DNA of 64,000 nucleotides from a virus (taxonomy: Duplodnaviria; Caudoviricetes). The stretch covers positions 13,128 through 77,127 of IMG/VR virus record IMGVR_UViG_3300049142_000128; one strand, given 5' to 3'. Position numbers and translations under genes: made by a program. Below the pieces are notes generated by a model, which saw nothing but the letters and a program-made list of their open reading frames with translations, was not told the DNA's origin and did not search any database. This document shows positions 1,093-49,123 of the stretch, one piece after another (position 1 is the first letter of the stretch; every line of letters starts with the position of its first letter).

Positions 1093-1093
1093 C

Positions 1094-1138
1094 TGGTGGG
1101 CCCCCAGGGGATCGAACCCTGAACCCGCGGATTAAAAG
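1094..1138 (-). other. att common core = 3' half of tRNA-Lys(UUU)
   Basis: Reverse complement reads CTTTTAA anticodon loop, TCCGC, T-arm CAGGG-TTCGATC-CCCTG, GGGGCCC-A-CCA; the 5' tRNA half is absent. Confidence 0.9.
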
Positions 1139-1805: not shown

Positions 1806-2810
1806 GTGAACGAGGCGGACGAGCTGCTCCAGCCGCCGATCCGGCCCATGACCGCCCGGGCGGCCTCAGCGTTGCCGCCGCCCGAGCGGGCCGCGCTCTA
1901 CAGCTTCGAGCCCAAGTGGGACGGGTTCCGCTGCCTCGCGTTCCGGACCACGGAAGGCGGCCTCCTGCAGTCGCGACAGCAGCGCCCGCTGACGAGGTAC
2001 TTCCCCGAGGTGCTCGCCGGCCTCGTCGAGCAAATGCCGCCCGGCACGGTGCTCGACGGGGAGCTCGTCATCGCCCGCGGCGGGCGGCTCGACTTCACCG
2101 CGCTCCAGCGCCGCATCCACCCGTCGGCGATGCACGCCGCACGCCGCGGCGAGGTCGCGCCGGCCTGCCTGGTCGTGTTCGACGTCCTCGCCTCGGCCGG
2201 GGTGGACCTTCGAGGGCGTCCGTACTGGGCGCGCCGTGAGCACCTCGAGCTGCTCCTCCGCGACGCACGACCGCCGCTGGCGCTCACCCCGGCCACCCGG
2301 GACCTCGCCGCTGCCCACGCGTGGATGACCGAGCACGCCGGCGCCGGGATCGAGGGCGTCGTCGTGAAGGACGTCCGCCGCGGCTACCGGCCGGGCCGGA
2401 CCTCCTGGGAGAAGGTGCGCAGCCGCGCAACCACCGACGCGGTCGTCGGCGGCGTCCTCGGCCCGCTCGACGAGCCGCACGCGCTCGTTCTCGGACGACC
2501 CGACGGCGGCGGTCGGCTACGCGTAGTCGGCCGGACCGGGCCGCTCCCGGCCGCCGCGCGGCGGGAGGTCGGGGCGCTCCTCGAGCCGCCGCAGGGCCGG
2601 CACCCGTGGCCGAAGCGGATCTCGTCGTCGAGGTTCGGACAGCTCCCGCCGGAGCCCGTCTTCTACACCCAGGCGGAGCCGCGTCTGGTCGTCGAAGTGG
2701 ATGCCGACGTGTGCTGGGAGCAGGGACGGTGGCGGCACCCCACGGTGTTCCGGCGCCTGCGTGTCGACCTGCGCGCGGACGACCTCGCCACGACGAGTAG
2801 GGCCGGGTAG
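1806..2810 (+). CDS. ATP-dependent DNA ligase (LigC-like)
   Basis: Motif I EPKWDGFR, LDGELV, VVFDVL, EGVVVK, WEKVR, C-terminal OB-like WRHP. Confidence 0.92.
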   Translation: MNEADELLQPPIRPMTARAASALPPPERAALYSFEPKWDGFRCLAFRTTEGGLLQSRQQRPLTRYFPEVLAGLVEQMPPGTVLDGELVIARGGRLDFTALQRRIHPSAMHAARRGEVAPACLVVFDVLASAGVDLRGRPYWARREHLELLLRDARPPLALTPATRDLAAAHAWMTEHAGAGIEGVVVKDVRRGYRPGRTSWEKVRSRATTDAVVGGVLGPLDEPHALVLGRPDGGGRLRVVGRTGPLPAAARREVGALLEPPQGRHPWPKRISSSRFGQLPPEPVFYTQAEPRLVVEVDADVCWEQGRWRHPTVFRRLRVDLRADDLATTSRAG

Positions 2811-2849
2811 CAACCTGGTCTCGCAGGGCGGAACGGCATAGTTCCGGGC

Positions 2850-3230
2850 GTGCCCGACTACAACCTGCAGGACAAGACCACCGTCGGCATCCTCGACGTG
2901 CAGTTCAGCCCGCTCTCCACGCCCCTGGTCGCCTGGTACGTCTGGATCGAGGAGGACGACTCCGAGCAGATCGAGAAGCGGCCCGTTCTTGGTGTCCTCC
3001 TCCGCCATAAGATCAACCCCGGAGGCGACATCACCGGCTCTCGCGCCGAGATGGCCGTGCAGTTCGAAGACACAGCCGAGGTGTGCGCCGCGAACGACAG
3101 CGCGCTACTTGGCTCGAACGAGGCTTTCGTTGGGATCTACCCAGCCAGCGCGGATGAGCCGACACAGTCGATACGTGACACCGCCAGCCGACTCCGCAGG
3201 GAGATGAAGCGGCAGGAGAAGTCGGGCTAG
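2850..3230 (+). CDS. Hypothetical protein
   Basis: 126-aa ORF with globular, non-shadow composition. Confidence 0.65.
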   Translation: MPDYNLQDKTTVGILDVQFSPLSTPLVAWYVWIEEDDSEQIEKRPVLGVLLRHKINPGGDITGSRAEMAVQFEDTAEVCAANDSALLGSNEAFVGIYPASADEPTQSIRDTASRLRREMKRQEKSG

Positions 3231-3271
3231 CAACTCTCGAACAGAGGGCACCACGCCCGACGAGGCAGCGA

Positions 3272-3982
3272 TCAGTACCGAGCGCTCGGGCGCCCGATCG
3301 ACCGGGGCGCCCGGCGCCGCTGCTGGGGGCCCGTGTTCCGGTTCCTCCGCGCGGCGAGCGCCCGTTCCCGCGGATCGGCCGGCGGCGCCTCCTCGACGAC
3401 GCCAGCACGGCGGAGACCGTCGAAGAGCGGCCGCATGCGCTCTCCGATCTGCTGCATCCAGGCGGCCCCGGCCTCCCCGAGCGCGGCCATCACTTCGCGC
3501 ACCGGTGCGAACGCCTGGTCGAGCTGCCGCGCGAGCTCCGCGCTCTGCACTCGCTGCCGCTCGGCAAGGGACTCCATGCGCAGCTGCACCGCAGCTCGCT
3601 GCTCGTCGGTCGTCGCGGCGAGCAGCGCGCGCTGGGCGGCGCGCCAGTCCGCGGCGAGGTTTCCGGTCGAGCGTGGGAGGCGGAACTCCGGCGGCCCCGG
3701 ATCCCAGGTCACCTGCAGGAGGCCGAGAGGCGACACCAGCACCGGTGGCGACGGGATCGGCGGCTCCTCGTCCTCGAACGCCTCCGGTGGGATCACCCCG
3801 GGCGGGAAGTCTTCCGGCCGGTCCCAGGGCTCCCGGTATCCGACGAGCTCGTCGACGCGGCTCGCGTGCCACGCCTGCTGGCACCCGTCGCCGCAGAAGT
3901 CGTCGGACGGGGAGTCCTGCAGCGGGCCGCCGCACTCGTGGCAGCCGCCGACCGCCTCGTCGATCGCGTCGAGGATGTCCAC
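3272..3982 (-). CDS. Hypothetical protein with N-terminal CxxC...CxxxC motif and coiled coil
   Basis: GGCHECGGP...FCGDGCQ; SD GGAGG upstream. Confidence 0.7.
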   Translation of the reverse strand: MDILDAIDEAVGGCHECGGPLQDSPSDDFCGDGCQQAWHASRVDELVGYREPWDRPEDFPPGVIPPEAFEDEEPPIPSPPVLVSPLGLLQVTWDPGPPEFRLPRSTGNLAADWRAAQRALLAATTDEQRAAVQLRMESLAERQRVQSAELARQLDQAFAPVREVMAALGEAGAAWMQQIGERMRPLFDGLRRAGVVEEAPPADPRERALAARRNRNTGPQQRRRAPRSIGRPSARY

Positions 3983-4037
3983 GCGCTCATCCTCCCGCGG
4001 GGCGGCGACAACGACCCCGCTCCCGAGTCACCCCACG

Positions 4038-5144
4038 TCAGGTCACGATCCGCTCGGCGGGCTCCTCGGCCGAGTCGAGCCAGACCGTGCTGGTTCCGGT
4101 CGGGGTGACGGTGAGTCCGTACCGCGCCCGGTGTGGCCGCCCGTGCGCGGCCCACGCGCGGTGCGCAGCGAGGACCTCGTCTCCGATCGACCGCGAGCCG
4201 CTCTGGTGCGCGGTGCCGTTGCTGTCGATCTCGACCCAGGAGCCGTCGTCGGCGCGCAGGACGCGGGTCCCCCGGTCCGGCAGGCGCAAGGACTGCACGA
4301 TGCCAGGGACCCGGAGAGCGAGCTGGAAGCCGAAGTCGGCGTCGTCGAGATCGTCGAGAAGCTCGGGATCGAACTCGGCGGCGACGGGGCGCATCGCTGT
4401 CCGGTCGAACCAGGCGAGGCTCTCACCCAGCGTGCGGAACGGGTCGGCGGCGAACGGTCGAAGCCACATGAAGTGGCCTGGGACGGGGTGGAAGCGGCCC
4501 ACGAGGTTGCCGGCGCCGTCACGCTGGGCGGCGATCAAGGCGCTCGAGGTGGCGGCCCGCAGATCGGCCACGAGCCGGCCGGCGGCGCGGAGTTGCCGCA
4601 CCCACGCCCCGGGGACGGCGGGAACGGCGCAGGTGGCGATGATCCGGTCGAACGGTGCCCGCGCGGGCACGCCGGCCGCACCGTCCCCGGCCACGAGTGT
4701 CGGGGCGAAGCCCACCGACTTCAGCGCATCACGTGCCGCGTCGACGAGGTCCGGGTCGATGTCGATGCTGGTCACGGCATCGCTGCCGAGGCGGTGGCAG
4801 AGCAGCGCCGCGTTGTATCCGGTCCCGGTCCCGATCTCCAGCACCGTGTGGCCGGGCGCGACGTCGAGCATGCCCAGCATGCGCGCCATCAGGCTGGGCC
4901 GCGTCGAGGAGCTGGTCGGCACGATCTGCCCGGACTCGGGCACGTGCGCGACCTGGGTGGTCAGCGATTCGTCGCGGTAGACCGCGTCGGCCACATCGTC
5001 GCGGGGAGATCCGTCGGCCGCGAACGCGACCGGCACGAACACGTGCCGGGGGACGTTCTCAAACGCGGCGCGCCAGCCCGGGTCGAGCACACCCTGATCA
5101 GCGAGGTTGGCCGCCAGCCGCCGGGCCTGCTGCTGCCAGATCAT
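4038..5144 (-). CDS. Protein-L-isoaspartate O-methyltransferase homologue (RiPP aspartimide-forming PIMT)
   Basis: VPRHVF, SSSTRPSLMARML, VLEIGTGTGYNAALL, DRIIATC, FMWLR; ATGA overlap with the ATP-grasp gene. Confidence 0.92.
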   Translation of the reverse strand: MIWQQQARRLAANLADQGVLDPGWRAAFENVPRHVFVPVAFAADGSPRDDVADAVYRDESLTTQVAHVPESGQIVPTSSSTRPSLMARMLGMLDVAPGHTVLEIGTGTGYNAALLCHRLGSDAVTSIDIDPDLVDAARDALKSVGFAPTLVAGDGAAGVPARAPFDRIIATCAVPAVPGAWVRQLRAAGRLVADLRAATSSALIAAQRDGAGNLVGRFHPVPGHFMWLRPFAADPFRTLGESLAWFDRTAMRPVAAEFDPELLDDLDDADFGFQLALRVPGIVQSLRLPDRGTRVLRADDGSWVEIDSNGTAHQSGSRSIGDEVLAAHRAWAAHGRPHRARYGLTVTPTGTSTVWLDSAEEPAERIVT

Positions 5145-6115
5145 CGGGTCTCCTCCCCCGCGAGCAGCGCCGCGAATGCCGCCGCGATCGGCTGGTCGGC
5201 CTCGTCCTCCAGCCACAGCCACTGGCCGTTCGGGTTGCACTCGAGGAACCGCCAGCTGCCGTCCGGTTCGATCACGAAGTCGAACGCGCCGTACAGCAGG
5301 CCGAAGTGATCCAGGTAGGCCGACATCCCGAGCTGCACGTCCTGCGGGACCGTCACGGTCTCGTAGCGGAGGTTGCGGTAGTCGGCCCGCCAGTCCTCGC
5401 GCCCGGCGTCGGAGTCGGCGATCACGGCGACGGCGAACGCGGTTCTGCCGACCATCGTCACCCGCGCATCGTGGGCCTTCGGCACGCGCTCCTGGAACAG
5501 GTGCGCCGTGGCGGCGAGCTGCTCGGCGTCGATCTGGTCCGGATCGACGGTCGTGGTGAAGACCGAGGTGACGGTGTCGCCGTCGTCGAGCAGCATCGAG
5601 GAGAAGGTCTTGCAGACCAGCGGGCGGCCGATCTCCGCCGCGAACGCGCGCACCGCGTCGACGTCGTTGGTCACGAGGGTGCGCGGCACCAGCAGCCCGA
5701 CGTGCTCTGCCACGTCGAGCTGCAGGGGCTTGTACTCGGCCGGCGCGATCCGGGCGGGATGGTTCACCCAGGTCGCTGGCAGGGATGCGAGCACCCCGCC
5801 CACCCCGAGCTTGGCCTCGGTCAAGGCGAATGCCGCATCGCCGCTCTCCAGCCCGTGTGGGAGCCGGAACCGGGTGGGCCGGCGGTAGTAGACGGAGCGG
5901 ACCTCGTCGAGCTCGACCGTCGCCGATGGGGTGCGGAGCCGGCCGCGCCACCGCCCCTCGGAGTTGCGGGCGTCGATCCGCATCTGGGTCGGGAAGTCGC
6001 CGGTGTCCATGCGGACGAACGGGACACGCCGATCCTTCAGGTGGGCCTCGACCAGGTCGGCGGTCGCGTCCTCGGGCGCGCTGAGCACGAGCACCGGCCC
6101 GTCGGGATCAGTCAT
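5141..6115 (-). CDS. ATP-grasp RiPP maturase (graspetide synthetase)
   Basis: VYYRRP, WVNHP, EYKPLQL, PRTLVTN, LFQERVPK, DWR, YGAFDF, FLECNPNGQWLW. Confidence 0.93.
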   Translation of the reverse strand: MTDPDGPVLVLSAPEDATADLVEAHLKDRRVPFVRMDTGDFPTQMRIDARNSEGRWRGRLRTPSATVELDEVRSVYYRRPTRFRLPHGLESGDAAFALTEAKLGVGGVLASLPATWVNHPARIAPAEYKPLQLDVAEHVGLLVPRTLVTNDVDAVRAFAAEIGRPLVCKTFSSMLLDDGDTVTSVFTTTVDPDQIDAEQLAATAHLFQERVPKAHDARVTMVGRTAFAVAVIADSDAGREDWRADYRNLRYETVTVPQDVQLGMSAYLDHFGLLYGAFDFVIEPDGSWRFLECNPNGQWLWLEDEADQPIAAAFAALLAGEETR

Positions 6116-6362
6116 CGACGTCGGTGTCGGTGACGGAATCGGTGGTGCGGTTGCCGTCGTTCACGGTCTCGCTGTTCGTGCGGTAGGTGTTCCTCGTCGA
6201 GGTCGTGTCGTGCTTCTTGGCCTCGATCGGCGTGGGCACGCCCAGCGTCGCGGCGAACGGTCGCAGCGGGCCGGGCCGGTTCGGCGCGAGGATCCGCACT
6301 CCACCTGGATCGCTCTGCTGGAGCAGCGCGGTGGGCGGGAACAGCGGGTCGGACGTGGCCAT
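6108..6362 (-). CDS. Graspetide/graspimiditide precursor peptide (84 aa)
   Basis: Leader with LRPFA; core TTSTRNTYRTNSETVNDGNRTTDSVTDTDVDD (Thr/Ser donors, Asp acceptors, central DG); SD GGAGG. Confidence 0.88.
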   Translation of the reverse strand: MATSDPLFPPTALLQQSDPGGVRILAPNRPGPLRPFAATLGVPTPIEAKKHDTTSTRNTYRTNSETVNDGNRTTDSVTDTDVDD

Positions 6363-6489
6363 GAAGGTAGCCCTCCGGGTGAGCGGTTGGTGGTCTGAAC
6401 GTAGCGATCGGTGCGTCAGGCGTTGGGCTGTTCGCGAAACACGCGGCCGGGCGCCGCCGGCGGAGGTACACCGGCGACGCCGGCCACGA

Positions 6490-6645
6490 TCAGGGGGGAG
6501 CGCTTCGCCGGTCTCGCTCGTCTGCGTCGACCAACCGCAGCAGCGAGCGCGCGGCGTCGGGATCTCCAACCACCACACCGGACGACGTGACGACCAACCC
6601 GGGCGCCTCGTCGCCCTCGAACTCCCACCATCCGCCCGGGATCAT
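6490..6645 (-). CDS. Small hypothetical protein
   Basis: MIPGGWWEFEG...; starts 2 nt after the upstream stop. Confidence 0.5.
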   Translation of the reverse strand: MIPGGWWEFEGDEAPGLVVTSSGVVVGDPDAARSLLRLVDADERDRRSAPP

Positions 6646-6647
6646 GA

Positions 6648-6791
6648 TCAGACCCACGGCGTCTCCCGGCGGCCGCGGATCTCGTTTTCCTTCTCGATCC
6701 GCCGGCGGCGATCCCGCGCGCCCATGACGAGCACTGCGACCATCATGCCGCCGCCGACGACGAGCGCCACGACCACGTATTCCCGGCTCAT
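6648..6791 (-). CDS. Small membrane protein
   Basis: MSREYVVVALVVGGGMMVAVLVM hydrophobic stretch; ATGA overlap. Confidence 0.55.
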   Translation of the reverse strand: MSREYVVVALVVGGGMMVAVLVMGARDRRRRIEKENEIRGRRETPWV

Positions 6792-7078
6792 CGGACCCGG
6801 CCGACCGCTGCCGAGGCGTACTCGGCGAGCGGGCACGGCCAGACCTTCCGACCCGCTTGCGGGCCCGCCGGGCAGATGCGGCAATGCCCGGTGCCGTCGT
6901 CGGTGTGCTGAGCGAGCATCCGCGCAAGCGCAGCCGGCTGCCCACGGAAAAGGTCCGTGAACGCCCCTGCGAGCGGCGATATCGACGCCGCGACGATCGG
7001 CCGGCCAGCCAGCTCCGATGCGGGCTGGTTCGCAGATCTGCTCATCTCTCCGTCACATGCCTCGTCGGATGGGATCAC
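6788..7078 (-). CDS. Hypothetical protein with H/CxxC/C motif
   Basis: AQHTDDGTGHCRIC...WPC; start uncertain. Confidence 0.6.
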   Translation of the reverse strand: MIPSDEACDGEMSRSANQPASELAGRPIVAASISPLAGAFTDLFRGQPAALARMLAQHTDDGTGHCRICPAGPQAGRKVWPCPLAEYASAAVGRVR

Positions 7079-7308
7079 CGGCCGGCGCGGGCACTGGGGT
7101 TCGCAACCGCGCCGGCCGGGACATTCGGGGGCCGCCAGATCGGCGACAACCAGGAGTGTTCCGCCGGGACAGCAGACTGGGAGGGGATGAGATCGGGGCT
7201 GTCAAGGGGAGGATTCGGGGAGACTTTGAAGCCTCCCCGAATGTCAGCCTGTACCCGTCCAGCTACGCGCTGTGTGACGATGACGCGCGCCTACTGGGGA
7301 GGGCGACC

Positions 7309-8619
7309 GTGGCCGAGAATGATCAACTCAGGGCGGCGCGTGAACGCACCGCGTCGCCCGCCCATCCAGGCGAGGGACTGAGCAGGCAGGAACTCGCGCA
7401 GCTCGTCAACGCCTACATCTGGGACACCCACGATAAGCGGGTCGAGGTCGACGCCAACTACATCGGCAAGCTCGAGCGAGGCGGCATCCGCTGGCCCAGC
7501 CAGCTCTACCGCGAGGCCCTCCGCGCCGTCCTGAACGTCAGCACCGACGCCGCCCTCGGGTTCGTCAACCCCCGGCGGACCGTGGTACAGAGGCCCGTGG
7601 ATCGCAAGCAGTTCCTCCGCGGCGCGGCCTTCCTCGGCGCCGGCGCCATGTCCCTTCCCCCGATCGTCGCCCTGCTCGAGGGCAGCGAACCCACACCGGT
7701 GCCCCCCAAGGTCAGCGCCCGGGACGTCGAGCAGATCCACACGGCCGCCCGGGTCTTCGCGACCTGGGACCACACCTACGGCGGCGGTCTCGCCCGCGAG
7801 GCTGTGCAGGCGCAGCTGCGCTGGTCTGCCGGGCTCCTCGAGTCCACGGTCCCGGAGAAGCTCCGGGCCCCGCTGCTCTCCGCGGTCGGCTACCTGGCCC
7901 ACACGACCGGCTTCATGGCCTTCGACGCCTACGCCCACGACGACGCGCAGCGCATCTTCCGGTACGCGCTCACCTGCGCCGAGGAGGCCGGCGACTGGCA
8001 CCTCCGCGCGAAGATCCTCTCCAGCATGGCGCGGCAGGCGATCTGGATCGGCAGGCCCGACGACGGACTCACGCTGGCCGAGTTCGCGCTGGTGCGCGCC
8101 GACCGCCTCTCCGCCACCGAGCGGGCAATGCTGCACGTGGCCCACGCCCGCGCCCTCGCGAAGATGGGCCGAGTCGGGGACACCCTCACCGCCGTCGGCG
8201 CGGCCGACGACGAGTTCGCACGCCGCAACCCAGCATCCGACGCCCCGTGGATGGCCTACTACGACGCCGCGCAGCACGCGGGCGACTCCGGCCACGCCCT
8301 GTTCGACCTGGCCGTGATCGGCCGCTCTCGGGAGGAAGCCCGCAGCCGGCTCGCGGCCGCCGTGGCGGGCCACGGCCCGGCCTACGCCCGCTCCCGCGCG
8401 ATCGCGCAGACGAAGCTGGCCAGCCTCACCATGCTGGCCGGGGACCCGGTCGAGGCCGCCACGATCGGCCGCGAGGCCGTGGAGACGGCCGGGACGCTGC
8501 GGTCCCGACGAGCCGCGGACGATCTCCGGGAGCTGGGCCGCTACGCCGGACGGCACCCGAAGGTCGCCGAGGTCGTCGAGCTCCGGCACCGGATCAGCCG
8601 GACCGTCATCGCCTCGTGA
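7309..8619 (+). CDS. XRE-type HTH plus helical (TPR/NsdA-like) transcriptional regulator
   Basis: LRAARE...LSRQELAQ...YIGKLERGGIRWP HTH followed by all-helical repeats; GTG start with GGGAGG SD. Confidence 0.85.
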   Translation: MAENDQLRAARERTASPAHPGEGLSRQELAQLVNAYIWDTHDKRVEVDANYIGKLERGGIRWPSQLYREALRAVLNVSTDAALGFVNPRRTVVQRPVDRKQFLRGAAFLGAGAMSLPPIVALLEGSEPTPVPPKVSARDVEQIHTAARVFATWDHTYGGGLAREAVQAQLRWSAGLLESTVPEKLRAPLLSAVGYLAHTTGFMAFDAYAHDDAQRIFRYALTCAEEAGDWHLRAKILSSMARQAIWIGRPDDGLTLAEFALVRADRLSATERAMLHVAHARALAKMGRVGDTLTAVGAADDEFARRNPASDAPWMAYYDAAQHAGDSGHALFDLAVIGRSREEARSRLAAAVAGHGPAYARSRAIAQTKLASLTMLAGDPVEAATIGREAVETAGTLRSRRAADDLRELGRYAGRHPKVAEVVELRHRISRTVIAS

Positions 8620-9503
8620 GCAGCGCACCCGAGCGCGCGGCGCTCGACCTCCTCGCGGCGGCCTGCGCGCAGGTCGGGCTGGACATGGCGGGAGCCGAGA
8701 TCATCCGGCTCGGTGAGAACGCGATCTTCCGGCTCCCCGGAGGTGTCGTGACCCGGATCGCGCGGCCCGGCCAGCTCGCCGCCGCGACGCGAGAGGTTCG
8801 GATCGCTCGCTGGTTCGCCGATCAAGGTGTGCGCGCGGTGCGCGCGCTGGACAGCATCGCGCAGCCGCTGAACGTCGAGCAGCATCCGGTGACGTTCTGG
8901 GAGGAGCTGCCGCCGCACCGGCACGGCACCGTGCTCGAGGTCGCCGACGCCCTGCGCCAGCTGCACGGGCTGCCGCTCCCCGACTGCGATCTGCTCGGCC
9001 CCCTCGACCCGTTCGTCCGGCTGACCGAGCGCATCGAGGGCGGCGCCACGCTGCCCGCCGATGATCGGGCCTGGCTGCGGCAGCACCTCGCCGCGCTGCG
9101 CCAGCGCTACCAGACCCTCCCGCCGGGGCTGCCGCATCGTGTGGTGCACGGCGACGCGTGGGGCGGCAACATCGTCACCACCCACGACGGCCGGACCCTG
9201 CTCCTCGACCTCGAACGCTGCTCCGTCGGGCCGCCCGAGTGGGACCTCGTGTCGATCGCGCTCCGGCGGGGCTCGTTCGGCTGGCTCTCTGACGCCGACT
9301 ACCAGGCCTTCGCGAGCCGGTACGGCCACGACGTGACGACGTGGTCTGGCTACGAGCTGCTCCGCGACATCCGCGAGCTGCGCATGGCGCTCTACCGCGT
9401 TCAGCGCGCCGCCGAGCACCCCGGCGAGCGTGGCGAGGCGCAGCTCCGGGTCGCAAGCCTTCGAGGACGGCACGGCCCGCGACCGTGGGCATGGGGCCGC
9501 TGA
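8616..9503 (+). CDS. APH/choline-kinase-like phosphotransferase
   Basis: RLGENAIF, VVHGDAWGGNI, LLDLE, GPPEWDL; GTGA overlap with the regulator. Confidence 0.88.
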   Translation: MSSAPERAALDLLAAACAQVGLDMAGAEIIRLGENAIFRLPGGVVTRIARPGQLAAATREVRIARWFADQGVRAVRALDSIAQPLNVEQHPVTFWEELPPHRHGTVLEVADALRQLHGLPLPDCDLLGPLDPFVRLTERIEGGATLPADDRAWLRQHLAALRQRYQTLPPGLPHRVVHGDAWGGNIVTTHDGRTLLLDLERCSVGPPEWDLVSIALRRGSFGWLSDADYQAFASRYGHDVTTWSGYELLRDIRELRMALYRVQRAAEHPGERGEAQLRVASLRGRHGPRPWAWGR

Positions 9504-9527
9504 CCGCCCCCGTCTGACCGATTGATC

Positions 9528-9558
9528 GAAGACCCCCGGCCCCGGCCAGGGGGTCTTC
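9528..9558 (+). terminator. Hairpin terminator
   Basis: GAAGACCCCC-N11-GGGGGTCTTC directly after the phosphotransferase. Confidence 0.7.
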
Positions 9559-9581
9559 GTCGTTCCCGAGCCCGTCGCGAA

Positions 9582-9635
9582 TCTCTTGACGAACGCGACA
9601 AGAGTTGTGCTAGTCTCTTGTCAACAAGCAAGAGA
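9582..9635 (+). promoter_or_regulatory. Promoter/operator copy 1
   Basis: TTGACG-19nt-TAGTCT with alternating CTCTTG/CAAGAG half-sites. Confidence 0.75.
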
Positions 9636-9656
9636 CACCAACCGAGGGAGCCCCAC

Positions 9657-9959
9657 ATGATCGCCACCGCCAACATCGCCCCCATCACCTTCTACGTCGC
9701 GTGGGCGCTCGCCCTCGTCGGCCGCACCCAGGCCGGGCAGGCCTTCTACTCGATCAAGGCCAACGGCCGCCCCATCGGCCGCATCCAGCAGTGCCGCCGC
9801 GCGGACGGCACCGGTGGCACCGGCTTTCTGCTCGAGCTCGACGGCGAGGCGGCCACCATCCGCACTCACCTGCGCGACTGGCGCGAGGTGCGCGACGTCG
9901 TGCGCAACCCGCGCGTGTACGCCTCGGCGAACGCCGGGCGCAGGTGGCGGCTCGTGTAG
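9657..9959 (+). CDS. Hypothetical protein
   Basis: SD GAGGGAG, ATG, GC3-biased codons. Confidence 0.75.
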   Translation: MIATANIAPITFYVAWALALVGRTQAGQAFYSIKANGRPIGRIQQCRRADGTGGTGFLLELDGEAATIRTHLRDWREVRDVVRNPRVYASANAGRRWRLV

Positions 9960-10034
9960 CGCCCCCGGCCCGGCCCTCACCCGGCCGGGCCTCACGCCCG
10001 CCTCCTCCCCACCCACACCGGAAGGACTCCGACC

Positions 10035-10265
10035 ATGACCCGCGCGATCACCCTCACCGACCTGCACTACACGTTCAAGCCCGTCACCGTGCCCGTCGAG
10101 CAGGTCGGCGCCGCCCTGCGCCCGTGGACGGAGCCGTGGGGCGCCCGGTTCGTCGACGTGGCCGAGGAGTTCGCCGCCGCGGTGTACGCGGGCGACGACG
10201 AGGCCGCCGGTGAGCTGGCCGGACATCTCGGCATCGGCTGGGAGGACACGCCGCAGGCCACCTGA
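10035..10265 (+). CDS. Hypothetical protein
   Basis: SD GAAGGA; GC3 bias. Confidence 0.75.
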   Translation: MTRAITLTDLHYTFKPVTVPVEQVGAALRPWTEPWGARFVDVAEEFAAAVYAGDDEAAGELAGHLGIGWEDTPQAT

Positions 10266-10321
10266 CCCCTCACCACCCGGCCGGCCACCGGCCCACCGCT
10301 CCCGCTCGAAGGACACCGCCG

Positions 10322-11155
10322 ATGACCGCCGCCCCCGCCGCCCGCACCTTCTACGTCGGCGCCCCCGCACCCAAGTGGCTCACCCTCACCACCGTCCCCC
10401 AGTTCGTCTCCCATACGCGCCTCCGCACCCGCCGCAACCTCCCCCGCGCCGTCGCCCGGTGGGCACTCGACTCCGGCGGCTTCACCGAGCTCTCCCGCCA
10501 CGGCCGGTGGACCATCACCCCCGCCGCGTACGCCACTGCCGTGCGCCGCTACCGCGACGAGATCGGCGGCCTCGACTGGGCCGCCCCGCAGGACTGGATG
10601 TGCGAGCCCGAGCAGCTCGACAACACCGGGCTCACCGTCGCCGAGCACCAGCGCCGCACCGTCGACAACTACCTCGAGCTGCGCGCCATCGCCCCCGATC
10701 TGCCGATCATCCCCGTGGTGCAGGGCTGGACCGTGGGCAGCTACCGCCGCTGCGTCGAGCTGTACGCGGCCGCCGGCGTCGACCTGCGCGCCGAGTCCGT
10801 CGTCGGCATCGGCTCCGTCTGCCGCCGGACGAACCCGGTCACGGTCGCGCTCATCGTCGACGAGCTGCGGGCCCTCGGCCTGTCCGGCCTGCACGGGTTC
10901 GGGGTGAAGTCCGACGCCCTCGCCCTGGTCGCGGGGCAGCTGTCCTCGGCCGACTCGCAGGCGTGGTCGAGCGCCGCACGGGCGCGCCGCGAGCCCTGCT
11001 CGGAGGACTCGGCCCGCCGGGACTGCCGCAACTGCATGCACTACGCCCTCGAGTGGGTGGATCAGCTGCGCACGGCGATCCGCTGGCACGACGTGCCGAC
11101 GGCTCTGCTGCCGGCGCCGCGGAACGCTGTCGACGAGCTCACCTTGTCCGCGTAA
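10322..11155 (+). CDS. TGT-fold (DpdA-like) guanine transglycosylase homologue
   Basis: WALDSGGF, APQDWMCEP, PVVQGW, GIGSVCRR, LHGFGVK, SADSQAWS and C-terminal C..CxxC.H cluster. Confidence 0.8.
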   Translation: MTAAPAARTFYVGAPAPKWLTLTTVPQFVSHTRLRTRRNLPRAVARWALDSGGFTELSRHGRWTITPAAYATAVRRYRDEIGGLDWAAPQDWMCEPEQLDNTGLTVAEHQRRTVDNYLELRAIAPDLPIIPVVQGWTVGSYRRCVELYAAAGVDLRAESVVGIGSVCRRTNPVTVALIVDELRALGLSGLHGFGVKSDALALVAGQLSSADSQAWSSAARARREPCSEDSARRDCRNCMHYALEWVDQLRTAIRWHDVPTALLPAPRNAVDELTLSA

Positions 11156-11179
11156 GCCAGCGCACCACCTCCGGAAGTT

Positions 11180-11231
11180 CCTTGACAGGTACGACAAGAG
11201 TTCTGTTAGACTCTTGTCAGCAAGCAAGAGA
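11180..11231 (+). promoter_or_regulatory. Promoter/operator copy 2
   Basis: TTGACA-19nt-TAGACT with CAAGAG/CTCTTG/CAAGAG sites. Confidence 0.75.
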
Positions 11232-11251
11232 CCGACCCTGAGGAGCTCCTG

Positions 11252-11827
11252 ATGGCCGCCACCACTGTCGCCCCCGCCGCCCGCTACATCGGCGTGACCG
11301 ACGAGTGCGTTGAGTGTCAGCAGTGCGGCAAGGTCGGCCTGCGCTCCACCGTCGTCCTCGGCCTCCTCGACGCCGACGGCAACGTCGACGAGGTCACCTA
11401 CTACGGCTCGGACTGCGCCGCCCGCGCCCTCGGTGTCGGCGGCGGTGCCCGCAAGGTCCTCGCCGCCGCCCGCGAGGCCGACCGCACCACTCGCGCGCTG
11501 GCCGCCGACGCCCGCGACCGGGCCGCCCACTACGGCTACGACCCGGTCACCGGCGAGATCACCACCGCCCGCAGCTTCGCTGAGATCGCCGTCCGCCGCC
11601 GCCGGCTCTACGTCGGCTCCCCGTGGGCCGCGGACATGACCTGGCAGGACTGGCAGGACGCGGCGCGCGAGATGATCGCCCGCGACGTGGCCGCGGTCGC
11701 CGCCGAGCGGCTGCTGGACGGCGTCCGCCCCGCCGCCGCGGCCTCCGCTCCGACCGAGGAGCCGGCCGCGCCGGTGCTCGTCGACGGCGCCCCGTTCGAG
11801 CTCGCCCCGGTGGGCGCCCTGTTCTGA
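11252..11827 (+). CDS. Hypothetical protein with CxxCxxC motif
   Basis: DECVECQQCGK...YYGSDCAA; SD GAGGAG. Confidence 0.75.
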   Translation: MAATTVAPAARYIGVTDECVECQQCGKVGLRSTVVLGLLDADGNVDEVTYYGSDCAARALGVGGGARKVLAAAREADRTTRALAADARDRAAHYGYDPVTGEITTARSFAEIAVRRRRLYVGSPWAADMTWQDWQDAAREMIARDVAAVAAERLLDGVRPAAAASAPTEEPAAPVLVDGAPFELAPVGALF

Positions 11828-11830
11828 AGA

Positions 11831-11884
11831 TCTCTTGACGAGCACGTCAAGAGACGTGCTAGACTCTTGTCAGCAGTCAAGAGA
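11831..11884 (+). promoter_or_regulatory. Promoter/operator copy 3
   Basis: TTGACG-19nt-TAGACT; perfect IR TCTCTTGAC-N6-GTCAAGAGA plus second IR CTCTTG-N8-CAAGAG. Confidence 0.78.
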
Positions 11885-46364: not shown

Positions 46365-47003
46365 CTAGCTGGCGCGCCACCGCGGTCCGATCGGCACGAC
46401 AGGCCCGTCCCACGAGGCCGGAGCGCCCGTGCGCCAGGCGACACGGAGCACAGTCCGGGCGCCTCCGGCCAGCAGCGACGGGCCGTCGGCGTGGTCGACG
46501 AGGGACGGCCACGTGTACCGGACGGGGCGGCGCTGGTTGCGGTACCAGCAGCCGATCCGCTGGTCGTAGGGCAGATGGCACCGCTTCCCCCAGGCGAGGA
46601 GCCCGGCCAGGTCGGCGGCGGGGAGCACGGTGGCGACGCCCCAGAGCAGGGTGTTCGCCTCGAGCCAGGACGCGCCGATCTCGTCGGCCCGCCGGACGGC
46701 GCGGGCGACCTGCTCCGGCCGTGGGCGGGAACGGCCGACGTAGAGCCCGATCGGCCCGTCCGGGTAGGCGGCCACCGCGGCGCCGACGTGCTCGAGCAGG
46801 CCGGGCACCGGCACGGCGTCGTCCTGCACGATCAGCGCGTGCGCGGCGTCCTGCTGCGCCGCCCATGCGAGCGCGCGGGCGTGGGTGGGCCACTCTCCCT
46901 CGCCGAGCCGGTCGACGACGAGGTGCGCGCCCAGCTCGGAGGCGAGCTGCTCGGCGGCGGCGAGCCGGGCCGGGTGGGCGACCACGGCGACGGCGGGGCT
47001 CAC
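46365..47003 (-). CDS. Glycosyltransferase (GT-A, actinophage type)
   Basis: LIVQDDAVP, YTWPSLVDHAD. Confidence 0.8.
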   Translation of the reverse strand: MSPAVAVVAHPARLAAAEQLASELGAHLVVDRLGEGEWPTHARALAWAAQQDAAHALIVQDDAVPVPGLLEHVGAAVAAYPDGPIGLYVGRSRPRPEQVARAVRRADEIGASWLEANTLLWGVATVLPAADLAGLLAWGKRCHLPYDQRIGCWYRNQRRPVRYTWPSLVDHADGPSLLAGGARTVLRVAWRTGAPASWDGPVVPIGPRWRAS

Positions 47004-47935
47004 GCGAGGGCCTCGACGGCGCGGACGAAGGCGTCGAGCTCGGGCCGCGGGTCCAGCTCGGCCGCGCGGGCGCGGGCACGCCGGGAGGCGACTTCGTCGT
47101 CGTAGAGCCGCCGGATCGCGGTCCCCCACGCGTCGACGTCGTCCCGGTCGATGAAGGTTCCGGCACCGGCGAGGGACTCCCGCAGCCCCGGTGTGGGGTG
47201 CGCGATCACGGGGATCCCGGAGTGCATCGCCTCGACCCCGACCATCCCCCACGACTCGTAGTCCGACGGCATCAGCAGCAGGCGGGTGCGCGCCCACACG
47301 TCCCGGCGCATGTCCGCGGTGTGCGGCTGCCACACGACGTTCGGAAGGTCGGGGCGCCGGAGCTGCTCGTCGCGCTGGTAACCGCCCTCAACGGCGAGGA
47401 ACCGGTGCTCCGGCAGGCGCTCGGCGAGCGCGTAGAACGTCGCAGCACCCTTCGCGGGGATCGGGTTGACCAGCGTGATCATGTCGCCGCGGGTGGTGAC
47501 GTGCTGCTCGCCCCACACCGGCGGGTGCACGACGAGCGCGCGGGCTCGGCGGCCGTGGGCGCGGTGCAGCCAACGCGTGTTGTAGACGACGAGCGCGGAC
47601 CGGCGGGCGAGGAACCGGGCGGTGAGCCGGTTCGTGTTGTGCACGACCTGGACGGCGGGCCGGCGGGTGCGGTGCGCCCAGTCGAGGATCCGGCCGGTCT
47701 CCTTGTGGTGGCCGATGCCGACGTCGTAGGCCTCGGTGCGGAGCCGGTCGAGGTGCTCGGCGCCCTGGTGCACGAGTACGCCGTCGAGGTCGACGGTCGG
47801 GCCGTCCTGCTCGGTGACGATCAGTTCCGGGTGGTGGCCGGCGCGGGCGAGCGCGGCGAGGAGTTCGTGCAGCATCAGCTCCGACCCGCCCCGGTTGGCC
47901 GGGAGCCCGTAGTGGGCGACCGCGACGATCCGCAC
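47000..47935 (-). CDS. Glycosyltransferase family 4 (GT-B)
   Basis: GGSELML, LLMPSDYESWGMVGVEAMHSGIPVIA. Confidence 0.88.
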   Translation of the reverse strand: MRIVAVAHYGLPANRGGSELMLHELLAALARAGHHPELIVTEQDGPTVDLDGVLVHQGAEHLDRLRTEAYDVGIGHHKETGRILDWAHRTRRPAVQVVHNTNRLTARFLARRSALVVYNTRWLHRAHGRRARALVVHPPVWGEQHVTTRGDMITLVNPIPAKGAATFYALAERLPEHRFLAVEGGYQRDEQLRRPDLPNVVWQPHTADMRRDVWARTRLLLMPSDYESWGMVGVEAMHSGIPVIAHPTPGLRESLAGAGTFIDRDDVDAWGTAIRRLYDDEVASRRARARAAELDPRPELDAFVRAVEALA

Positions 47936-47936
47936 G

Positions 47937-48602
47937 TCAGCGCCCGGCGATGAGCTGCCGCATCCCGCGCGGGTTGCGGCGCAGGCCGCGGTAGCGGTTC
48001 TGCCGGGCGATGTTCCGCCGGTACTGCTGGGAGGTGCGGTCCATCTCCGAGGGGTGCCAGAGCCCGTAGAGCGTGCCGTCGTGCCTGACGGTCTGGCCGA
48101 GGAGCGCGTCGCAGGCGTGGCGGAACGCGACGTCCTCGCCGCCCCACCCGTGGAACCCCTCGTCCTGCCCGCCGGCCTCCCAGTAGGCGTCGTGGTCGAT
48201 GACGAGCACGCCGCCGACGCTGTTGGTGGTGACGAGCTCGGGCTTCCCGATTCCGGCTGGCTGTGCTCCCTGCAGGAGCACGCGGAGGGTCTGCTCCCGC
48301 GTCAGCCCGGCGAAGATCGTGTAGGGCAGGTGCAGCAGGCCGTCGCCGGCGGCCTCGATCGCGGCCTCGACCGGCTCCCGCTCGGGCAGCGAGTCCGCGT
48401 CGCACACCACGACCACCCCGGAGCCGGCCTCGCGGACGCCCGCGTTTCTGGCCGCCGACCGGTTGAACGGCTCGTGGCCGCTGTCGGCGACGACGAGCCG
48501 CGCGCCGGGCAGGATGCGCTGCAGGTGGCCGCGGGTGTAGTCGGCCGCGACCTCCCGGTCGACCTGGCCACCGCGGAACGGGACGACGACCGTCACGCGC
48601 AT
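47937..48602 (-). CDS. Glycosyltransferase (GT2/GT7-like)
   Basis: VVVPFR, FNRSAARN, CDAD, GQDEGFHGWGGED. Confidence 0.88.
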   Translation of the reverse strand: MRVTVVVPFRGGQVDREVAADYTRGHLQRILPGARLVVADSGHEPFNRSAARNAGVREAGSGVVVVCDADSLPEREPVEAAIEAAGDGLLHLPYTIFAGLTREQTLRVLLQGAQPAGIGKPELVTTNSVGGVLVIDHDAYWEAGGQDEGFHGWGGEDVAFRHACDALLGQTVRHDGTLYGLWHPSEMDRTSQQYRRNIARQNRYRGLRRNPRGMRQLIAGR

Positions 48603-49123
48603 GCCGCGACGCTCCACAGGTAGTAGCCGAGGACGTCGCCGCGCACGCTGTCGACGACGCCGCGGCCGAGCGCGTCGAGCATCTCGTCGTGGCCCCAGTG
48701 GTCGCGGTGGATCTCGAACCAGTTCCCGCCGACCGCGTCCTGCGCGTGGTGGGCGAGCGGGATCGAGACCAGCAGGTTGTCGGCCCACGCCTGCAGCAGC
48801 CGCAGCACCGAGCGGGCCTCCGGCTTCGCCATGTGCTCGAGGACGTCGCCGATGATGACGAGGTCGGGGGCGTAGGTGATCGAGTGCAGGTCGACGTGGC
48901 GGACGTCGGCGACGATCACGTGGTTGTACTTCGTCCAGAGGTCGTGCTCGGCGATGTACGGGGCCCAGGCCTCGACGGCCTTCCACGTCGCACCGGGGGT
49001 GTGCTCGCGGGCCAGGTCGCTGTAGGTGCCGGCACCGGGGCCGATGTCGACGACCACCTTCGGGGCGAGGTCGCGGATGCGGTCGAGGGCCCACTGCTTG
49101 TTCTCGGTGTCGGAGATCGGCAC
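48593..49123 (-). CDS. Class I SAM-dependent methyltransferase
   Basis: VVDIGPGAG, GDVLEHM. Confidence 0.85.
   Translation of the reverse strand: MPISDTENKQWALDRIRDLAPKVVVDIGPGAGTYSDLAREHTPGATWKAVEAWAPYIAEHDLWTKYNHVIVADVRHVDLHSITYAPDLVIIGDVLEHMAKPEARSVLRLLQAWADNLLVSIPLAHHAQDAVGGNWFEIHRDHWGHDEMLDALGRGVVDSVRGDVLGYYLWSVAACA

Follow-up and report, generated by a model that had tools for sequence, protein, structure and literature searches.

Closest Described Systems

Graspimiditides (group 13 graspetides) are peptides made on the ribosome and modified after translation (RiPPs) whose described members are fuscimiditide, amycolimiditide, albusimiditide and SsfA(BM). More than 1,000 graspimiditide clusters are known, of which four products have been characterised, two of them by nuclear magnetic resonance (NMR) structures, and reviews state that the biological function of these peptides and the purpose of their aspartimide remain unknown (PMC13001092; bioRxiv 10.1101/2023.06.21.545981). 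Natural-product clusters, for the most part of bacteriocins, have been described in phages before (Dragos et al., bioRxiv 10.1101/2020.10.01.322628). The anti-phage lanthipeptide clusters termed 'lanthiphage' encode a methyltransferase domain of family PF01135, and enrichment on prophages and plasmids has been reported for them (bioRxiv 10.1101/2024.06.26.600839), and graspetide clusters of the grasp-with-SPASM type are found on integrative and conjugative elements (ICEs) of Porphyromonas gingivalis (bioRxiv 10.64898/2026.08.04.741601). Here we describe a minus-strand operon at positions 4038 to 6362 of a 64,000-nucleotide stretch, the window, which comprises bases 13128-77127 of IMGVR_UViG_3300049142_000128, a virus record of 77,127 bp assembled from a soil metagenome. 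The operon encodes a precursor peptide, an ATP-grasp ligase and a methyltransferase of the protein L-isoaspartyl methyltransferase (PIMT) type. We consider it probable that this intact graspimiditide cluster is a self-contained accessory unit of a temperate, siphovirus-type phage of Pseudonocardiaceae.

The locus resembles the described graspimiditide clusters in having precursor, ATP-grasp and PIMT genes and neither protease nor exporter, in the conserved His, the Ser/Thr-rich arm, the Asp-Gly loop and the Asp-rich arm of its precursor, and in its actinomycete origin (bioRxiv 10.1101/2023.06.21.545981; Zhu and Link, PMC13001092). Unlike the characterised members, it is carried by a phage and known from its genes alone, and its precursor is one of a small family, specific to Pseudonocardiaceae, that has the leader motif LRPFAATLGVP. 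The spacing of its ester donors does not fit the consensus of graspimiditide cluster 1a, HxTSTx3TxTxTx3DG. It shares with phage bacteriocin and lanthiphage clusters the character of a small RiPP cargo on a temperate phage, and with lanthiphage also the PIMT-type domain; unlike lanthiphage, the cross-links predicted here are esters made by an ATP-grasp enzyme, not lanthionines. An ATP-grasp gene of the MvdD/MdnC type beside a small ORF on a mobile element is likewise seen in the P. gingivalis ICEs and in the Leptospira phage LE1-like record KF114876.1, but these have no PIMT partner, share 27-30% identity and come from different phyla, and the ICE clusters have type I secretion genes. In KF114876.1 (59005-60079; L045), a 37-aa ORF runs into the start of a gene for a 'RimK-like ATP-grasp' protein (27% identical), and judging from the sequence the two look like an unrecognised graspetide pair in a plasmid-phage.

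A Precursor, an ATP-Grasp Ligase and a PIMT-Type Methyltransferase

The three overlapping genes reported by the initial annotation were recovered as minus-strand open reading frames (ORFs) with exactly the same boundaries (Table 1). The 3' end of the precursor gene and the ATG of the ATP-grasp gene share 8 nt, an ATGA overlap couples the stop codon of the ATP-grasp gene to the start of the methyltransferase gene, and the GC content at third codon positions (GC3) is above 0.9, as in coding DNA, in all three ORFs. The ATP-grasp protein scored 402 bits against TIGR04187 ('ATP-grasp ribosomal peptide maturase'; cut-off 350) and carries the MvdD pre-ATP-grasp domain PF21068 (E 9e-16). It aligned end to end with the solved graspetide ligase MdnC (5ig9, E 5e-45) and also with the solved ligases 9bou, AMdnB, MdnB, CdnC and PsnB (structures including 7m4s, 7mgv and 7drm), and among 11 homologues E292-x-N294 and 60 other columns are invariant. 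Residues 8-214 of the 368 in the methyltransferase form a PIMT domain (PF01135; E 8e-31, 108 bits, cut-off 20.3), its S-adenosylmethionine (SAM) motif VLEIGTGTGY aligns with that of the PIMT 1jg1, and a C-terminal extension of about 150 aa follows. By sequence, this enzyme is predicted to install an aspartimide at D69-G70 of the precursor. The ATP-grasp enzyme, the PF01135 methyltransferase and the precursor core all show the features of group 13 graspetides, in agreement with the class proposed by the initial annotation; the ester and aspartimide chemistry would follow from family membership.

In the precursor, residues 1-50 form a leader with the conserved motif LRPFAATLGVP followed by KKH, and residues 51-84 form the core, HDTTSTRNTYRTNSETVNDGNRTTDSVTDTDVDD, which had been quoted correctly, with Ser and Thr on the N-terminal and Asp on the C-terminal side of D69-G70. 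When 5.8 billion proteins were searched, 13 relatives came up, from metagenomes and one Pseudonocardiaceae metagenome-assembled genome (MAG). When the phage precursor was aligned with them (14 sequences), T53, T56, D69, G70, D75, D79 and D83 were invariant, and the leader L-R-P-F-A-A-T-L-G-V and the core entry K-K-H-D-T-T nearly so. The conserved His51 sits ahead of the donor arm; a conserved His at this place is reported for graspimiditide clusters 1, 2, 3a and 5, and the central Asp-Gly is also a core feature (bioRxiv 10.1101/2023.06.21.545981). The same precursor family was found at nine bacterial loci, all in Pseudonocardiaceae or Mycobacteriales MAGs, which keep the order precursor, ATP-grasp, methyltransferase. 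On this comparison of sequences the precursor is a genuine conserved gene with a motif beyond chance, since 13 homologues keep the motif and nine bacterial loci keep the gene order.

We then applied the equal-spacing rule of the characterised graspimiditides, which concerns both arms, to the precursor sequences. Three ester registers fit the family, and the sequence does not settle the topology among them. Register 137 would join T62-D75, (S58-D79), T56-D81, T54-D83 and T53-D84, giving five conserved rungs, four of them in the phage copy. Register 139 would join S64-D75 and T56-D83, both possible in 13/13 sequences, and register 141 would join T66-D75, T62-D79 and (S58-D83), giving three rungs, two in the phage copy.

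The pairing of enzyme and substrate was looked at by predicting the complex of precursor and ATP-grasp protein. The interface score ipSAE was 0.68 (median of 3 runs, one of which gave 0.00), against 0.01 for the best control; the ipSAE mark of this docking test is reached by 58 of 80 solved complexes and by 2 of 110 mismatched pairs. The runs agreed in at least 4% of contacts, with a predicted local distance difference test (pLDDT) score of the partner of at least 27. In the model, the confident interface places precursor residues 33-46, which are the conserved leader motif, and residues 12-18 against residues 168-206 of the ATP-grasp protein. The prediction supports docking of the precursor on this enzyme, and the pass may reflect likeness instead of being independent evidence, because leader-bound complexes of the related ligases MdnC, CdnC and PsnB have been solved.

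Putting these elements together, we propose the following pathway. The leader motif of the translated 84-aa precursor would dock on the central domain of the ATP-grasp enzyme, which, by analogy with its family, would use ATP to activate the side chains of D75, D79, D81, D83 and D84. The activated Asp residues would be joined to Thr and Ser hydroxyls of residues 53-66 as nested omega-esters, probably giving a stem-loop with 2-4 rungs. The PIMT homologue would methylate Asp69 in the loop with SAM, and the amide of Gly70 would expel methanol to leave an aspartimide, as expected from the four characterised graspimiditides. Family searches found no protease or exporter gene in the 8.4-kb segment that holds the operon, so that leader removal and release would be left to host functions or lysis, as in other graspimiditide clusters. 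The initial annotation had noted this absence, which holds for the segment, and had read from it that the peptide may act inside the cell or on lysis. That second part does not follow, because graspimiditide clusters normally lack both (Choi et al., bioRxiv 10.1101/2023.06.21.545981), and the absence tells nothing about where the peptide acts.

The Operon Is Cargo of a Temperate Phage

We wanted to place the operon within the phage genome. On one side it is flanked by the integrase, a metalloprotease, a helix-turn-helix (HTH) repressor-like gene, a helicase, a RecE-type exonuclease and a single-strand-binding protein (SSB), and on the other by a DpdA-like gene, an FtsK/TraB-like module, an endolysin, a tail fibre, the tape measure, major tail, capsid and portal proteins and the large terminase. 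A site matching the attP core, at up to 100% identity, was present in 325 of 401 sampled Pseudonocardiaceae genomes (tallies over these 401 include the unpublished G009, G043, G067, G092, G128, G134, G237, G280, G342, G371, G380 and G391, on which no particular claim depends). In the four loci L037, L038, L043 and L044 the matching site is the 3' end of tRNA-Lys(ttt).

A related prophage was found in the Pseudonocardiaceae genome G293 (contig 1, 157,731-248,758; 91 kb), with 45 genes in common with the studied phage and identities of 75% for the capsid, 83% for the tape measure and 85% for the ligase. It is bounded by a 51-bp direct repeat at a tRNA-Tyr gene. Its integrase, at the attL end, is 55% identical to that of the studied phage, and the ligase homologue is the last gene before attR. 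The studied record is in the excised, packaged configuration, because its attP lies between the integrase and the ligase, which sit at opposite ends of the G293 prophage. After integration, the RiPP operon, 2.9 kb from attP, would lie 2.9-5.3 kb inward of attR, separated from the junction by the conserved ligase gene.

In G293 the ligase homologue is directly followed by a homologue of window positions 11252-11827; segment 2811-11251 is absent, and no ATP-grasp homologue was found there. This segment is variable cargo, since its flanking genes adjoin in the G293 prophage, and the cluster is accessory cargo (a putative moron) inside an att-bounded temperate phage genome. That the cluster belongs to the excised phage DNA, on which the initial annotation depended, agrees with attP lying outside the ligase gene, the cluster beyond it and phage genes on both sides. 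Its tailed-phage setting was likewise recovered, with terminase, portal, capsid, tape measure, endolysin, integrase and attP all present and a syntenic prophage in existence.

Assembly support came from a separately built Logan contig of 6,141 nt at depth 201, which covers 2551-8691 (ligase, cluster and regulator) with zero differences; its neighbours have depths of 224 and 185. The unitig break at 1095-1123 falls in the tRNA-like core common to host genomes, and the breaks at about 2551-2580 and 8662-8691 came without explanation. GC and GC3 of the segment match the rest of the phage. A second soil run, X2, gave short pieces only, at 90-95% identity, and was left out of the evidence. The assembly is unlikely to be chimeric, because the separate contig spans ligase, cluster and regulator at the depth of its neighbours and without differences.

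Probable Bacterial Origin, and Recurrence in Viral Contigs

The closest copy of the cluster lies in Pseudonocardia sp. MAG SAW28 (L013), with 82% identity for the ATP-grasp protein, 72% for the methyltransferase and 72-74% for the precursor. SAW28 and its relatives (L008-L012 and L014) have the same gene order and precursor family as the phage. Unlike the phage copy, the SAW28 cluster sits among housekeeping-type genes (a chromosomal ABC sugar transporter, thioredoxin-like and DoxX genes, with no phage gene shared with the window), has Ser58 in its precursor, and is preceded by an extra, truncated PIMT fragment. This fragment, a 143-aa ORF (PF01135; L013 6351-6782) just upstream of the precursor gene, stands besides the full-length downstream methyltransferase and may be a remnant of duplication or rearrangement. 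Related ATP-grasp genes (E <1e-60) occur in 111 of the 401 Pseudonocardiaceae genomes, the second best after SAW28 being 55% identical, and the phage capsid protein was sought in the five MAG genomes with the closest clusters and not found there. The simplest reading of these sequence comparisons is that the phage captured a host-type cluster of the Pseudonocardia chromosomal kind, and the cluster would then record that a whole RiPP pathway recently passed from host to phage. Imprecise excision was considered as the route of capture and is insufficient, given the conserved ligase gene between attP and the cluster.

The initial annotation had proposed a search of phage databases. In a profile-guided scan of IMG/VR, related ATP-grasp genes turned up on 15 viral contigs, and on 8 of these a PIMT gene follows directly downstream. 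Five of these eight were checked, and four are proviruses and one is linear. The small upstream ORF was translated at six loci, and all six have typical graspimiditide cores. One cluster (L003) is flanked by the regulator and a single-strand annealing protein, another (L005) by the regulator and phage-only (PHROG) families of unknown function, and in one provirus, rated 100% complete by CheckV, the cluster has a TerL-like match at a distance of 4 kb. Not all of these cases can be trusted, as two matches end at a contig edge right after the ATP-grasp gene and several lie at provirus ends. In the IMG/VR provirus L059 (8001-10192 and 16053-16874), a graspetide ATP-grasp gene (35% identical) stands beside an endolysin homologue, about 7 kb from a tape-measure homologue; no PIMT gene was found next to it.

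Among deposited phages, megablast with positions 3200-7300 gave no match, and tblastn with the ATP-grasp protein gave only two distant records, of 27-30% identity. The word 'phage' is absent from the graspimiditide survey (bioRxiv 10.1101/2023.06.21.545981) and from the 2026 aspartimide review (PMC13001092), and the searched papers that name graspetides together with phage or prophage contain, as far as their titles and abstracts largely tell, no phage-borne graspetide. A natural-product cluster of this kind in a tailed phage is therefore unusual, as had been remarked, and unreported; it is not unique, in view of the bacteriocin precedents and of at least eight IMG/VR contigs with ATP-grasp and PIMT pairs. 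What is new is the carriage of a graspimiditide cluster inside an att-bounded temperate actinophage genome. Its recurrence is a hint, and the chemistry would be of a known kind. With this cluster, ester-cross-linked RiPPs would join the natural products that phages move between actinomycetes.

Possible Role and Alternative Explanations

Most likely, expression from the prophage would make the operon a lysogenic-conversion trait of advantage to the lysogen; timing of expression and role are put forward here from gene content and position. The peptide could serve in defence, competition or protease inhibition, or be a passenger. We know of no anti-phage or antibacterial activity for any graspimiditide. 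A bolder and rather unlikely idea is that graspimiditides are phage-linked, the aspartimide-bearing hairpin that the prophage makes in the lysogen serving there either as a chemical agent of superinfection exclusion or against phages, or to inhibit a protease or a defence enzyme of the host. The anti-phage version would parallel the lanthipeptides of lanthiphage with their PIMT domain, which block phage late transcription. If it were true, recurrent carriage by proviruses would reveal the long-sought function of a class with more than 1,000 clusters. The position of the operon in phage cargo, near the integration site and with its own regulator, makes the function of the peptide genetically testable in lysogens.

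Several observations weigh against an intact graspimiditide cluster working as an accessory unit of the phage. The best NCBIfam model for the methyltransferase is TIGR04188, which describes the methyltransferase of ATP-grasp peptide maturase systems; the match covers profile positions 1-362 of 363 but, at 321.5 bits, does not reach the curated cut-off of 380. The precursor matched no curated precursor model in Pfam or NCBIfam at E up to 0.1, which does not exclude class membership because precursor families are diverse. The phage precursor alone has Asn58, where 10 of the 13 relatives have Ser, a possible ester donor, and by sequence this may mean one rung fewer in two of the three registers. 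The ratio of nonsynonymous to synonymous substitution rates (dN/dS) between the phage and SAW28 copies is 0.29 for the precursor gene and 0.23 and 0.28 for the other two, and a comparison with a bacterial copy cannot show selection persisting after capture by the phage. The genome was assembled from the metagenome of one sample, and the run used for depth is probably that same sample, so that this check is not independent. Finally, no sigma-70-like promoter or intrinsic terminator was detected by a scan that is weak for actinomycete DNA of 72% GC.

The strongest rival, which we hold to be quite unlikely, is that the cluster is real and intact and is a neutral passenger, brought into the cargo region by recent illegitimate recombination, of no use to phage or lysogen and due to decay or be lost. 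The whole segment is missing from the closest prophage relative, G293, the nearest homologue is chromosomal, and Asn58 at a conserved Ser could be early drift. However, the three ORFs are intact and translationally coupled, dN/dS is 0.23-0.29 for all three genes, and the phage was abundant (about 200x), the depth of the cluster being that of the backbone. Moreover, ATP-grasp and PIMT pairs from different subfamilies are present on at least 8 other IMG/VR contigs, which points to their having been retained repeatedly.

It is very unlikely that the two enzymes act on a phage or host protein, for instance in repair or cross-linking, and not on the product of the small ORF. RiPP ATP-grasp enzymes can be promiscuous (PMC12291112). 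PIMTs are ancestrally protein-repair enzymes. Yet the small ORF is conserved, always heads the operon and runs into the start of the ATP-grasp gene in ten loci, its invariant residues are those at the donor, Asp-Gly and acceptor positions, and in the model, whose controls were clean, its conserved leader motif docks on the enzyme.

An assembly or boundary artefact, in which the RiPP segment would be host DNA misjoined to or flanking the phage contig, is extremely unlikely and largely refuted: a record assembled from one soil metagenome speaks for it, as does the position of several IMG/VR matches at provirus ends, two of them cut after the ATP-grasp gene, which shows that such boundaries may mislead, but both flanks of the segment (the ligase and the 11252-11827 homologue) are conserved in G293, attP lies outside the ligase, the separate contig runs from ligase to kinase without differences at about 200x like its neighbours, and GC and GC3 of the segment equal those of the rest of the phage.

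Regulation and Neighbouring Genes

Table 1. Features of the phage window around the graspimiditide-type operon (window positions).
Feature	Position	Strand	Basis or remark
Tyrosine integrase, ~430 aa	1-1092	plus	phrog_1, E 6e-50; start of the ORF at genome position 12927, upstream of the window
attP core	1093-1138		Reverse complement of the 3' 45-46 nt of tRNA-Lys(UUU); directly after the integrase stop
ATP-dependent DNA ligase	1806-2810	plus	phrog_114; conserved phage gene between attP and the RiPP segment
Variable accessory segment, 8.4 kb	2811-11251		Two unknown genes, RiPP operon, regulator, APH-like kinase, two small ORFs, DpdA-like gene
Gene without assigned function, 236 aa	3272-3982	minus	N-terminal CxxC...C...C; coding GC3; 55 nt 3' of the methyltransferase gene
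PIMT-type O-methyltransferase, 368 aa	4038-5144	minus	PF01135; best NCBIfam model TIGR04188, below its cut-off; C-terminal extension typical of RiPP-associated PIMTs
ATP-grasp RiPP maturase (omega-ester ligase), 324 aa	5141-6115	minus	TIGR04187, PF21068
Precursor peptide gene, 84 aa	6108-6362	minus	ORF; ATG at 6362, GGAGGG ribosome-binding site 8 nt 5'
XRE-HTH/TPR-like regulator, 436 aa	7309-8619	plus	phrog_10886, E 3e-56; divergent from the precursor gene
APH-family phosphotransferase/kinase	8616-9503		PF01636; overlaps the regulator stop codon

The regulator next to the operon has an Atlas score of 0.99 to actinomycete XRE regulators. Its homologues stand divergently upstream of the graspimiditide clusters in SAW28 and in the IMG/VR loci L047, L051, L054 and L056, and a homologue is convergent in the MAG locus L009. 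The pair of regulator and APH kinase is absent from the G293 prophage. A repeat scan of the intergenic region 6363-7308 gave nothing convincing except a palindrome at 7213-7242, a near-perfect 14+14 repeat (ATTCGGGGAGACTT AA GCCTCCCCGAAT) about 70 nt upstream of the regulator start, which is a possible operator or terminator. A palindromic operator cassette heads neighbouring plus-strand genes at 9583-9634, 11211 and 11832-11883; membership of the RiPP operon in this regulon was ruled out, as no copy of the cassette lies near the cluster. Downstream of the methyltransferase gene, the 236-aa gene is possibly co-transcribed with the operon. Its product matched no Pfam or PHROG family, its best Atlas match scored 0.76, and no homologue was found in the G293 prophage. 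A search of the segment for PADLOC defence families found none, giving only a generic methyltransferase-fold match (mad2) and a marginal ZorA match.

Some further features concern the phage at large. A motif of about 20 nt near attP, at 1258-1279 and 1008-1026, recurs near attL and attR of G293 and is a candidate for arm-type integrase sites. About 10 kb of the G293 prophage (contig 1, 171400-181700), between the SSB and the small-terminase-side genes, has no counterpart at the ends of the 77-kb record; either the record ends are incomplete or G293 holds extra cargo. Three consecutive glycosyltransferase-like genes at 46365-48617 (phrog_854, phrog_26352/2170 and phrog_1721) lie between the capsid and portal regions and are 86-89% identical in the G293 prophage. 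ARAGORN called a plus-strand tRNA-Gly(acc) at 46485-46558, within the minus-strand glycosyltransferase ORF 46365-47003 (phrog_854), and either the tRNA is a spurious call or the ORF must be redrawn. Lastly, the variable segment holds a stand-alone DpdA-like gene at 10322-11155 (PF23859, E 4e-75; phrog_1279), near which no obvious DpdB or queuosine-precursor genes were seen, and which could serve 7-deazaguanine DNA modification with precursors from the host.

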